A DNA stretch of 64,000 nucleotides from assembly GCA_951406725.2 (NCBI GenBank), contig OX597839.1, positions 24,428,001 to 24,492,000 on the forward strand. The letters run 5' to 3'. Below are positions 5,865 through 51,081 of the stretch, piece after piece; the first letter of the stretch is position 1, and each line of letters starts with the position of its first letter. Both the position numbers and the translations under genes were made by a program. Below the pieces are notes generated by a model. It was not told where the DNA came from. It worked only from the letters and a program-made list of their open reading frames with translations, and made no database searches. This DNA comes from Octopus vulgaris. Its lineage: Eukaryota.

Positions 5865-6555
5865 ACCCTTTAGCAAATATTTGCCCTGTTTTTATGCTTC
5901 AATTGACAATGGTCCAGCCTCTCACACCTACCCCACAATAACACCCTGAAAACAACCACATTATTCAAATCTTGAAGTTACAAGACAATGCACGTTTAAC
6001 TGAAAACCGAGAACGAACAAGCTTTACATTTGACAGAATTATGTGAATGCGGAAAGGTGGAATCGGCCATATCTGGCTCATATATATTCTTTCTGTGTTA
6101 TGTTCAAACTGACCAGATCTGGTCTCTCGTACCTACCCTTCAATGTCATTCTAACAAAAACAAACAATCACCTTATTGAAATCTCAAAGCTAAGAGACAG
6201 TGCACGATGGATTCAAAAACAATGTCACTAAATAAAGATTACATTTGAGGGAGTAACCCGAATGCTGAAGGGTCAAATCAGACATATCAAGCCATAATAG
6301 TCTACCTGTTTTATATCCCAACTAGCCAGATCTGGTCTCTTCCACTTACCTTACAATGTCATTCCAAAACTAGACAATCAAATCATTGAAATCTCAAAGC
6401 TACGAGATAATCCATGACTAATTGAAAACAATGTGGATAAATAAGGATTACATTCGACAGAAGAATCTGAATGCTAAAGGGTCGGATTAGCCATGCCCAG
6501 CCCAAATATTCTACCCGTTTTATGTTCAAACTGACCAGATCTGGCCTCTTACACC
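5865..6555 (+). mobile_element. Tandem head-to-tail array of ~3.5 decayed family-1 MITE copies
   Basis: Repeated ...TTATGTTCAAACTGACCAGATCTGG...AAATCTCAAAGCTA...AATGCTAAAGGG at ~210-bp spacing. Confidence 0.7.
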
Positions 6556-9973: not shown

Positions 9974-10324
9974 GACTTTTTTCAGTTTCAGTCGACCAAA
10001 TTCACTCACAAGGCTTTGGTCAGCCTGGGGCTTTAGTAGAAGACACTTGCCCAAGGTGTCACGCAGTGGGACTGAACCTGGACCCTTGTAGTTAGGAAGC
10101 AAGCTTCTTACCCTACAGCCATGCCTACTTGTATGTGTGATTTTATGTATGTGAAGTCATATCTCACACATCATGTCTAAAATTCTGTGTGTGTTTGTGT
10201 GTGTATAAAAGAAAATATATATATATAACGGGAAAGTTTACGAAAATGAACAAAAGACGAAGGCAGGTGGAGTACAAACAAACAAATGTATTAGTATAGC
10301 GCTCAGGAATAGAAATAGAACAAG

Positions 10325-10362
10325 TCTTTTACATTTCGAGCCTACGCTCTTCGACAGAAAGA
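10325..10362 (-). ncRNA. Minimal hammerhead-like motif with deviant core
   Basis: Minus strand TCTTT CTGTCGA A GAGC gtag GCTC GAAA TG TA AAAGA; 5-bp stem I and 4-bp stem II perfect, A6 replaced by U. Confidence 0.5.
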
Positions 10363-10888
10363 TACAAAGAAAAAAAACAAGGAGAGAAAAAAATGCGTGT
10401 AGTGGCTAACGATCTATCATACACACATATACACACACACATTGATTGACTTTCTATCTAAAGTGCAATCACAGCGAGAGCCAGTTGAAAAGGAATCTTC
10501 TGTTTTTCTTTTTGTTGTTGTCCACTTTGTGACCCGGGGCCCTGCTGTCTGTCATCTTTTTTGAACTTGTAATTACAGGAGAGAGAGAGAGAGAGAGAGA
10601 GAGGAAATGTGTCATTTAATTGCTAGTTAGCTAAACCTAAATGAATGTACATTATTACATCACCATCATCATAATGTGTGTCAGCATGGAGGACCTTTAT
10701 GATGTCAGTGCAAGCTACCGGAACTAATTAGTGTGCATCATCATCATCAACATTGTTTTGATGTCCACTTCTCCATGTTTGCATGGGTCGCAGATGTGAC
10801 ATTGTAGGGTAGGTGTGAGAGGATGAATCTGGTCAATCCGAACATAAAAAAAGGGCAAATATTTCGGCCAGATATGGTTGGTTTAAAT

Positions 10889-20871: not shown

Positions 20872-21113
20872 TATATATATTATATATATGCGTGTGTGTG
20901 TTTGTGTGTCTGTCCCCCTAGCATTGCTTGACAACTGATACTGGTGTGTGTTATGTCCCCGTTACTTAGTGGTTCGGCAAAAGAGACCGATAGAATAAGT
21001 ACTGGGCTTACAAAAGAACAAGTCCTGGGGTCGAGTTGCTCGATTGAAGGCAGTGCTCCAGCATGGCCGCAGTCAAATGACTGAAACAAGTAAAAGAGTA
21101 TATATATATATAT

Positions 21114-21574
21114 ATAATAGAAATATTAAAATAACTAAGTCTCTCTAAAAGAGAACAGCGGCAGCGTTCCCGGAAAATAATAGTTATCGCCATACTAATA
21201 TTAGTATGGCGATAACTATTATTTTCCGGGAACGCTGCCGCTGTTCTCTTTTAGAGAGACTTAGTTACTTTAATATTTCTATTATTGAAAACAAGTGGAT
21301 GTATTCCACCGAAACTAGGTAAATAAAACCATCGAACAGAGATTGTCGGAAGCGACACCTACTGGCTGGCTACGCTGCATTGAAAAGGGGCAATACTCCG
21401 AAACGCGTCTGTAGCTGCCGGTCAAGTAGTGTGGAGCGACTGACCTCCCTTGTTCGAAGGTTATATGGATACAGTTTGTGTATCAAATAGCTAACTTAAG
21501 GCGATGGCCTCATGGAGCTAATAAGCGGACAGCTTTTTTCTTATTTTTATAAGAATGCCATATTAGTATGGCGA

Positions 21575-21581
<7 letters not shown>
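21114..21581 (+). mobile_element. Non-autonomous Penelope-like/retrozyme-like element: 86-bp inverted head + 362-bp terminally redundant monomer
   Basis: Loopless palindrome 21114-21285 (one mismatch); ATATTAGTATGGCGATAACTAT repeated at 21198 and 21560; (TA)n on both sides; internal hammerhead. Confidence 0.7.
21359..21429 (+). ncRNA. Type I hammerhead ribozyme, U3:A8 core variant, extended stem I
   Basis: GCTGCA(21374-79) TTGAAAA(core 21380-86) GGGG caata CTCC (stem II) GAAA CGCG TC TGTAGC. Stem I extends GGCTGGC/GCCGGTC and CTACT/AGTAG across a TAC bulge. Cleavage triplet GUC at 21407-21409. Confidence 0.8.
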
Positions 21582-21609
<28 letters not shown>

Positions 21610-22139
21610 CTTTTAGTAAATTCCCAACATTTCTCAGTAATTTATCTCAATACCAGCATATAACTATGTCTATCTGTCTATAGCTATTTCTCCCCATTGA
21701 TCTATCCATCTGCCCAAGTCTATCAAAGTCGATCTGTCCATCTATGTCTATGTATTGAGACATCTAGATCTAACTTTACTTCCATTTCTGTCTGTCTGCC
21801 TGCCTACGTCTCTCTGTATTTGAATCTGTTTCTGTCCGTCCGTCTGTCGCTCTGCTCTTATCTTTTTTGTCTCTCTAGATGAAACAAGAGAAGTATTTAC
21901 CAATCTGTAGAACAATCTTGCTTCACCTCCATCCACAGACCCATATATCAACTGATCTATCCAACACACACACACACACACACACCAGAAACACATATAC
22001 ACACATATATACATACACACATATACATACGTATACACATACATACATGTACACATAGACATACATCATCATCATGCACCCACATGTATATACATGCATA
22101 TACACACATACATACATACACATATGCACACATACACAT

Positions 22140-22710
22140 ACCTACACTCATATATATACACATACATACACATATATATACATATATATATATACACACA
22201 CACACATACATATACACATGTACATATACACACACACACATGTACATTATAAACAAACATATATACACACACACATATACAAGGATATATACGTACACAC
22301 ATACAGATATCACACACAAATATACATACATACTCATATATATACACATACATACACATATATATACATATATATATACACACACACACATACATATACA
22401 CATACATGTACATATACACACACGTGTACATTATAAACAAACATATACACACACATACAGACATACATATACAAAGATATATACGTACACACATACACAG
22501 ATATCACACACAAATATACATACATACTCATATATACACATACATACACATATATACATATATATATATACACACACACACAAACATATACACATACATG
22601 TACATATACACACACGTGTACATTATAAACAAACATACACACACACACACACATATACAAAGACATACGTACACACATACAGATATACACACACAAATAT
22701 ACATACATAC
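22140..22710. repeat. Compound CA/TA microsatellite tandemly duplicated (~190-bp period)
   Basis: Marker TGTACATTATAAACAAACAT at 22241, 22426, 22617. Confidence 0.8.
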
Positions 22711-48372: not shown

Positions 48373-48404
<32 letters not shown>

Positions 48405-48407
<3 letters not shown>

Positions 48408-49165
48408 AGTGAAAGAGAGAGAAAGGGAAATAGAGACGTGAGTGGGGAAACATGGCAAAGCTCAGTAGAAATCCCTAAACTTAAGAGGAGCTAGGAACAC
48501 GTGTGTGTGTGTGTGCGTATACATATATATAAACGCGTCTGTGTGTATAGACGTGTCTGTATGCATGTATATAAACGTGTGTGTGTGTGTGAGTGAAAGA
48601 GAGAAAGGGAATTAGAGACGTGAATGGGGAAACATGGCAAAGCTCAGTAGAAATCCCTGAACTTAAAAGAGGAGCTAGAAACACACGTGTGTGTGTGTGT
48701 GTATGTGCGCGTATGCATGTATATAAACGCGTCTGTGTGTATATACGTGTCTGTATGCATGTATATAAATGTGTGTGTGTGTGTGTGAGTGAAAGAGAGA
48801 GAAAGGGAAATAGAGACGTGAATGGAGAAACATGGCAAAGCTCAGTAGAAATCCCTGAACTTAAAAGAGGAGCTAGGAAACACACGTGTGTGTGTGTGTG
48901 TGTGCGCGTATGCATGTATATAAACGCGTCTGTGTGTATATACGTGTCTGTATGCATGTATATAAATGTGTGTGTGTGTGTGTGTGAGTGAAAGAGAGAG
49001 AAAGGGAAATAGAGACGTGAATGGAGAAACATGGCAAGGCTCAGTAGAAATCCCTAAACGTAAAAGAGGAGCTAGGAACACACGTGTGTGTGTGTGTGTG
49101 TGTATGCATGTATATAAACGCGTCTGTATGTGTGTGTGTGTGCATAAGTGTGAGATAAGGAAATA
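48405..49165. repeat. ~185-200-bp tandem repeat, 4 copies
   Basis: GAGTGAAAGAGAGA...AAACATGGCAAAGCTCAGTAGAAATCCCT...GAGGAGCTAG at ~48405, 48589, 48785, 48984. Confidence 0.9.
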
Positions 49166-50339: not shown

Positions 50340-50349
50340 AGGAACAGTT

Positions 50350-50387
<38 letters not shown>

Positions 50388-50516
50388 TATCTGGGTGTGA
50401 GTGTGTATAGACATATATACACACACATACACAAACACACACTTATACACAAACACATACACCTATATACACACTTTTTATACAAGGTAATCTGTCCAAG
50501 CATGTATACATATATT

Positions 50517-50547
<31 letters not shown>

Positions 50548-50695
50548 CCGGGTGTGTGTGTATAGACATATATACACATACAAACACACCTATATACACA
50601 CATACACACCTATATACATACATATACACAAACACATACACCTATATACACACTTTTTATACAAAGTAGTCTGTCCAAGCATGTATACATATATT

Positions 50696-50733
<38 letters not shown>

Positions 50734-51081
50734 GATATGTGTGTGTGTGTATAGACATATATACACACACATATACAAACACACATACATATACACACAC
50801 AAACACATACACCTATATACACACTTTTTAAACAAGGTAAATCTGTCCAAGCATGTATACATACATATATAGCAAACAGTTTGTGAATGTATATTTACAC
50901 AGAAAGCTGTTTATACACACACCAAAATTGTTTAGACATTATATACACACACACACACATAGTAAGCTGCTTAAATATCCATGAATTGTTTATACATGTA
51001 TAAACAAATTATTTATACACAGTGTTAACACATATACACTCAGTGTTTATACACAAGTATATACATGCAGGTATATGTATG

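Follow-up and report, generated by a model that had tools for sequence, protein, structure and literature searches.

The element described here is likely a non-LTR retrozyme moved by the machinery of a Penelope-like element (PLE). In the stretch of Octopus vulgaris DNA that was analysed (64,000 nucleotides, hereafter the window), it is probably represented by an insertion of a young 362-base retrozyme with a U3:A8 hammerhead core, circles of which are likely to have been copied into (TA)n by a PLE enzyme.

The hammerhead and its insertion

The insertion and its parts are listed below, with positions counted from the first letter of the window and with the basis of each entry in brackets.

21099..21116, no strand: left remnant of the (TA)n target, where a dispersed SINE-like repeat has its 3' end
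21114..21199, minus strand: long-ended inverted arm of 86 bp, without hammerhead, to (TA)n (inverted repeat, 86 nt, 99%)
21200..21581, plus strand: short-ended arm, one 362-bp unit plus 20 bases (382 bp), to (TA)n (direct repeat, spacing 362)
21359..21429, plus strand: type I hammerhead motif with stems I and II, distal helices and U3:A8 (sequence, fold, cross-family covariation)
21380..21386, plus strand: core positions 3-9 (U3 U4 G5 A6 A7 A8 A9), TTGAAAA, with U3 at 21380 and A8 at 21385
21387..21399, plus strand: stem II with CAAUA loop (sequence, copy counts of the exact versus the degenerate core)
21403..21408, plus strand: palindromic stem III, ACGCGU (duplex energy, other palindromes in sister families)
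21557..21572, plus strand: hairpin GCCAUA-UUAG-UAUGGC, a short way upstream of the short end and conserved among sister families
21579..21607, no strand: right (TA)n target remnant (repeat analysis)

A hammerhead at 21359..21429 had been proposed in an earlier note, and all of the elements named there were found in place when checked against the sequence. Stem II is formed by GGGG (21387-90) and CTCC (21396-99), is closed by the loop CAATA (21391-95), and contains one G.U pair (21389.21397) in the window copy. GAAA occupies 21400-03 and GTC 21407-09, and cleavage is predicted to follow C21409. The proximal stem I has 6 bp (21374-79 / 21410-15); a UAC bulge (21371-73) faces the lone U21416, and the distal helices have 7 bp (21364-70 / 21417-23) and 5 bp (21359-63 / 21425-29). 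The minimum free energy structure of 21340-21450, which contains stems I and II and both distal helices, was calculated to have an energy of -45.8 kcal/mol (z -4.27), a stability equalled by 0 of 200 shuffles, and the pair probabilities for the hammerhead were 0.91-1.0. By pattern search, this is the single hammerhead-like motif in the 64-kb window. Rfam gave no match at gathering score in the whole window, and 28 weak matches, without any hammerhead family among them, in 21100-21620 at E≤10; the hammerhead therefore escapes the standard models. The miRNA-family matches near the site were discarded, since they lie below gathering score and arise from the 86-bp palindrome that constitutes the inversion junction. 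Tandem repeats with periods of ~180-210 bp were also observed in the window (48390-49131, 50348-50871, 22109-22710 and 6098-6555), and a search of these for the hammerhead pattern returned no motif.

The two arms of the insertion are joined head to head, and both outer ends enter (TA)n. The fixed end of the short-ended arm lies 172 nt past the cleavage site, and that of the long-ended arm 238 nt past it. The inversion junction (21199/21200) was found to lie in the loop of a second copy of the hairpin GCCAUA-UUAG-UAUGGC; the hairpin at 21557..21572 is regarded as a candidate protein-binding site. Consisting of 1.06 units plus the inverted arm, the insertion holds one hammerhead only. A monomer is therefore not releasable by this copy alone, and the window copy probably represents a dead end, for which cleavage would require a second RNA. 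The dispersed SINE-like repeat at 20900-21098, in whose 3' (TA)n the retrozyme lies, has 27 more matches in the window and may resemble octopus tRNA-derived SINEs.

A young family of tandem units and its sisters

The hammerhead is not solitary but lies inside a 362-bp non-coding unit. A search for this unit in the 2.8-Gb genome yielded 169 matches among the 40 scored of 1,182 candidates, many of them 99-100% identical and arrayed at 362-bp spacing. The exact 30-base core occurs in 143 copies genome-wide (control 0), and a degenerate core in 1,455 (control 1). Judged by these two counts, the stem II G.U at 21397 is a minority variant, most copies having G-C. Among 46 aligned copies from the first 30 loci, which were chosen as best matches and include one row that is a poor self-match, 33 have the window's sequence and 8 have G-C in place of the stem II G.U. 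Copy number and youth rule out a co-opted single-copy ribozyme.

Several sister families were identified, which are likewise tandem, have units of 353-364 bp and align along the full unit length. The GC content of the unit is 41.7%, within the range below 50% that is characteristic of retrozymes. No protein-like open reading frame (ORF) of at least 170 aa was found within the arrays, and none in arrays of up to 9 units. When folded as circles, seven of seven natural monomers were 63-65% paired, with z values of -3.5 to -10 (30 shuffles each). At the level of sequence, the family has the make-up of a retrozyme, namely tandem non-coding units, in the range of ~150-450 bp, that each carry a single type I hammerhead. 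Where two hammerheads lie 2-7 kb apart, no PLE ORF was found between them; they belong to separate insertions or are separated by a LINE. One such LINE, apparently intact, lies between two retrozyme pieces at L062:1837-6703 and has a zinc-knuckle ORF1 and an ORF2 of 1,140 aa with endonuclease and reverse transcriptase (RT).

Covariation, the core pair and the loop contacts

Comparison among the families holds up the structural reading of the hammerhead and indicates a fold under selection. In an alignment of 13 family and subfamily rows, U4 G5 A6, A9, G12 A13 A14, the A15.1-U16.1 pair and H17, which characterize type I hammerheads, are invariant (13/13). Paired cells amount to 96.4%, and 12 of 19 pairs have changed on both sides. 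The covariation score was 0.63, as compared with at most 0.14 when partners were slid. The paired share and the covariation score were each reached by 0 of 500 shuffles, counts that are not to be read as probabilities because the rows are related; one of the five measures, the number of further pair types, did not rise above the shuffles (362 of 500). Between family A, to which the window copy belongs, and families B, C, F, G, H and J, the remainder of the unit is just 43-55% identical. The pairings and, apart from the covarying 3:8 pair and the free position 7, the UUGAAAA/GAAA core that the earlier note had read from a single copy are kept in the paralogous families of this alignment.

At positions 3 and 8, 10 rows have UA, 3 have CG and none has a mismatch, so that the pair is Watson-Crick throughout. 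Variation within family A was found at position 7, which is free, and in the G.U/G-C exchange of stem II. Position 7 is A or C according to subfamily, and A8 is fixed within the family: among the 100 core matches listed, U3 occurs together with A8 in 99 and C3 with A8 in the remaining one, while C7 is present in 21. A single family-A copy in the whole genome has G8. Genome-wide, core patterns with U3:A8 were found 5,125 times (control 87) versus 1,085 times for C3:G8 (control 34). On an unrooted tree of 15 rows built from the sequence outside the hammerhead, two changes of the 3:8 state are needed, and a single C3:G8 clade is rejected (AU p 2e-8). The pair thus appears to have changed between U3:A8 and C3:G8 at least twice among the sister families, a pattern that recombination between families could mimic. 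U3:A8 has been reported as a natural covariation that is active in vitro (PMC4209133, PMC3088659), and ~1,300 hammerheads of this kind have been reported from Schistosoma mansoni (PMC4209133). The core that had been described as non-canonical does carry U3:A8, but this core is already published (PMC3088659, PMC4209133) and is the commoner one in this genome.

The Schistosoma-like pair of loop 2 and stem I bulge, also claimed previously, was borne out in part: neither U1.7 nor the final A of loop 2 varies (13/13 rows), whereas the UAC bulge is variable, being UAC, UGC or UGU among the families. In the window copy, U21416 and A21395, both invariant in 13/13 rows, are positioned for a tertiary pair. 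The 5' U of loop 1 pairs with the 3' A of loop 2 in the Schistosoma hammerhead (PMC2632901). Docking of loop 1 onto loop 2 is therefore a candidate feature of the octopus hammerhead, in which the bases for a tertiary pair are available.

One long and one short end

The first 100 matches on one contig (C1) contain 57 distinct family-A insertions, and the ends were tallied for 56 of them, one LINE-interrupted piece being excluded. A long end was found together with a short end in 30 of the 56, and neither two long ends nor two short ends occurred. In these 30 two-armed insertions, one end lies 170-178 and the other 233-240 nt past the cleavage site. The remaining 26, which are single-armed or have a non-standard end and so do not exhibit the pairing, comprise 8 with one non-standard end, 16 with the 5' end outermost and one standard end, and 2 others. 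Long and short ends were also combined in 11 of 13 further loci picked on a different criterion and, for families B-D, in 9 of 16 loci; like ends were not observed in the latter families (0), and both of their ends lie at homologous places 3' of the conserved hairpin. The distance between the two ends is ~63 nt in family A and 48 nt in families B-D. The insertions therefore combine an inverted 5'-truncated arm, a tail at one end only and a microsatellite target, the set of features by which PLE mobilisation is recognized; a tail at one end only together with an inverted copy has been described for PLEs (bioRxiv 10.1101/2021.04.23.441226).

Two further observations concern the places where arms meet. 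A recurrent arm junction was found ~39 nt past the cleavage site, at a small hairpin, with 18 of the 100 listed sharing an 8-base flank, which suggests a snap-back hot spot. In addition, one PLE insertion (L131:1600-1690) and one retrozyme insertion (L194:1401-1652) have fragments of other repeats interposed between their arms, which may have arisen by template switching or patching at the junction.

Proposed route of insertion

Tandem copies would be transcribed and cut to unit length by hammerheads that are predicted to work as dimers, and the unit-length RNAs would be joined into circles, which a PLE enzyme likely copies back into (TA)n. The endonuclease would nick both (TA)n strands, and each 3' end would prime reverse transcription at one of two internal sites, ~63 nt apart and just 3' of the conserved hairpin. 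Each cDNA may exceed one unit, and the two cDNAs would then be joined head to head. For PLEs in vitro, two adjacent internal RT starts have been reported to define the tail, with both target strands extended (PMC11167929). A more specific form of this route, in which a dimer of the PLE enzyme holds one circle at the hairpin and primes both (TA)n strands at the two fixed sites, rolling in parallel, is advanced here tentatively and should be regarded as somewhat doubtful.

Cut circles or uncleaved arrays?

The circle would be unnecessary if the hammerhead were kept but rarely cut in vivo, and if the element spread by read-through of uncleaved arrays. Arm starts bear on this point. Searching for arm junctions at the cleavage site returned 15 matches, of which 13 were true, and the same search at a control stretch returned 104 matches, with ~55 junctions, counted by eye, among the 100 listed. 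Most of the 13 junctions begin within 3 bases of the cleavage site, but a similar crowding towards the anchor was seen among the control junctions; both arms of L202 begin at the cleavage site. Since arms do not accumulate at that site, a linear monomer produced by cleavage is unlikely to serve as the template. The missing run-off at this site fits circles and uncleaved multimers equally, and the lack of an excess of arm starts is compatible with read-through, as are the minimal stem III, the finding that hammerhead cleavage is dispensable for PLE insertion in vitro (PMC11167929) and the report that 8 of 9 Xenopus retrozyme dimers remained uncleaved (bioRxiv 10.64898/2026.07.22.740005). However, the core, the 3:8 pair, the loop contacts and the palindromy have been kept despite ~50% divergence elsewhere, which argues against a ribozyme that seldom acts. 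A second argument comes from 19 multi-unit loci, in which most differences are confined to one unit. In 6 of the 19, a variant found in no other sampled locus is present in all units, which fits a single monomer as template, although the same pattern would result from a donor array that was itself homogeneous. On this evidence, spread through uncleaved arrays is considered fairly unlikely.

For expression, 8 of 24 listed public sequencing runs were checked, as contigs only and with run types guessed, none being listed as RNA. The contigs cover the unit and several span the predicted cleavage site, a pattern to which circles, multimers and DNA would contribute alike. Two runs of one sample (X1, X2) each gave a contig of 392 bases, 30 more than the unit, a length that a tandem and a circle would both produce. 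The unique flank of the window insertion had no contig cover in the 8 runs examined.

Stem III and dimerization

The stem III of family A, ACGCGU, forms one pair plus a tetraloop in the monomer, whereas the predicted dimer has a 6-bp duplex of -7.5 kcal/mol. Stem III is palindromic in every family, in six sequence forms, with a single change in one L138 arm; cleavage as a dimer is therefore supported, and so, as far as the sequences speak to it, is dimerization via stem III. The arrangement is like that of axolotl Amex1, where helix III likewise closes one pair over a palindromic tetraloop and gives poor cleavage as a monomer (6% in 1 h for Amex1) and good cleavage as a dimer (PMC7229834).

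Alternatively, the same element might be cut efficiently as a monomer, with the contact between loops 1 and 2 offsetting the weak stem III and making the dimer unnecessary. The nucleotides of the tertiary contact are invariant, most invertebrate retrozyme hammerheads have been reported to cleave as monomers (PMC7761336), and stem III is longer in the sister families B, F and J than in family A, all of which would suit such a mode. It is nevertheless judged quite improbable, because family A is limited to one pair over a tetraloop, as in Amex1, and because palindromy has been maintained through six sequence forms of stem III.

Which PLE could supply the enzyme?

Two PLE families of this genome were considered. 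The abundant one (L131 type), with RVT_1 and GIY-YIG just under cut-off and 1,846 core matches, carries a minimal U3:A8 hammerhead and inserts in (TA)n; a long and a short end were combined in 8 of 8 inverted pairs, which had been picked for inversion and not for their ends. The second, also young (L123 type), has at least 5,998 candidates with frames of up to ~1,200 aa, and in the loci examined it showed one end type and no inversions. Between the unit and the two families no real similarity was found, the best match being 13 bases long (E 0.044) and on the opposite strand; either PLE is therefore a candidate partner only. An ORF with RT and GIY-YIG was absent at the window insertion and as a continuation of the unit in the sampled loci, and the element does not qualify as an autonomous PLE.

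In L052, the 3' end of an L123-type PLE takes the place of the long end and is joined directly to a retrozyme arm through a 5-base microhomology; either a template switch or a subsequent deletion would account for this fusion. The apparent retrozyme-PLE neighbours in L127 and L194 are not fusions but tail-to-tail arrangements via a short TA run, in which the same target was used in a nested manner by retrozyme and PLE insertions. Other traces of PLEs were noted. The window itself contains, at 10221-10412 (minus strand), a fragment of the 3' pseudo-LTR of the L123-type PLE with 85% identity. The minimal hammerhead of this PLE is best read with U for the conserved A6 in two loci (L123:6595-6640 and L052:60-110, minus strand). 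Many more minimal-hammerhead families with C3:G8 or U3:A8 cores were seen (L067, L068, L095, L096 and others), and these are probably the ends of other PLEs.

Could the unit itself be the pseudo-LTR of a yet-unfound autonomous PLE, with the copies being truncated ends? The end geometry and the target are PLE-like, and the 1,455 sites were examined as a sample. However, arrays of up to 9 units are without an ORF, no long PLE ORF continues the unit in the family-A loci examined except for the fused fragment of L052, and the family-A hammerhead is full-size while the PLE hammerheads here are minimal; this origin is thus highly improbable. LINE twin priming also makes head-to-head inversions, and LINEs are present (L062), but spread by this route or by satellite amplification at the DNA level has a barely appreciable probability, given that a poly(A) tail is absent, that both ends are fixed internal sites with arms extending far beyond each other's start, that the arrays are short and dispersed, and that the geometry is the tail plus inversion of PLEs (bioRxiv 10.1101/2021.04.23.441226).

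Comparison with known systems

A retrozyme moved by a PLE enzyme, the reading preferred here, can be set beside several published systems. The octopus element resembles the metazoan non-LTR retrozymes (PMC7229834), whose tandem non-coding units measure 350-390 bp in mussel and 330/350 bp in axolotl, and shares with them one type I hammerhead per unit, a GC content below 50%, a predicted circle that is self-paired and coexistence with PLEs. It differs from them as described there in its U3:A8 core and in having arms that are joined head to head and stop at two fixed sites in (TA)n; none of the words 'inverted', 'tail', 'microsatellite' and 'cephalopod' occurs in the main text of that paper. Expression and circles have been demonstrated for the metazoan retrozymes (PMC7229834), whereas the octopus element is known here from sequence.

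The swapped 3:8 pair is common to the minimal hammerheads of the S. mansoni Cercyon PLE (PMC4209133) and to the variants of Perreault 2011 (PMC3088659). Unlike those reported cases, the hammerhead here is full-size, has the loop contact bases, lies in a retrozyme and carries the majority core of its genome. Like the S. mansoni full-length type I hammerhead (PMC2632901), it has a 5' U and a UAC-containing strand in loop 1 and C...A in loop 2, whereas its loop 2 is one base shorter (five versus six), its loop 1 is 1x3, its core is U3:A8 and its stem III is shorter.

Partial tandems, an inverted arm, a tail at one end, AT-rich or (TA)n targets and two internal RT starts are shared with the tailed PLEs (bioRxiv 10.1101/2021.04.23.441226; PMC11167929). 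Unlike these as reported, the retrozyme is without an ORF and has a tail of ~63 nt (48 in families B-D) versus 30-40. The PLE studied in vitro showed no strand preference between its two starts (PMC11167929), whereas the insertions here use one of each. That animal retrozymes are non-autonomous PLE derivatives is also argued by Li, Clavereau and Pollet 2026 (10.64898/2026.07.22.740005), on the basis of co-occurrence and pseudo-LTR (pLTR) similarity in vertebrates; the argument made here is based on the insertion footprint, without pLTR similarity.

U3:A8, retrozymes and the Penelope tail have each been published already. In the literature search, no description was found of a full-size U3:A8 hammerhead in a retrozyme, of hammerhead retrozymes from octopus or other cephalopods, or of the rule of one long and one short end, and supplements and subscription papers may hold examples of each.

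What does the octopus element add?

The ribozyme by itself is a modest variant. Because U3:A8 patterns outnumber C3:G8 patterns by 5,125 to 1,085, most hammerheads of this genome would be missed by descriptors limited to C3:G8. The sister families provide naturally matched U3:A8 and C3:G8 ribozymes for testing the cost or benefit of the 3:8 pair. With regard to mobility, animal retrozymes have been described as having no motif that indicates their mobiliser (PMC7761336), and their mobilisation mechanism as unresolved (10.64898/2026.07.22.740005). The insertions described here bear the tail geometry of PLEs, with a strict pairing of ends that is also seen in a PLE of the same genome, and this predicts the exact start sites to be expected in an in vitro assay that already exists.

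If the more specific form of the route, with an enzyme dimer on one circle, is true, the insertions would be direct evidence of PLEs moving retrozymes. The rule of one long and one short end would then be a genomic fossil of dual priming on one circle, and the 362-nt RNA could serve at once as a minimal substrate for work on the second half of PLE integration, which is still unsolved. The families would also preserve a record of U3:A8 and C3:G8 having replaced each other repeatedly in nature while the ribozyme otherwise stayed constant.
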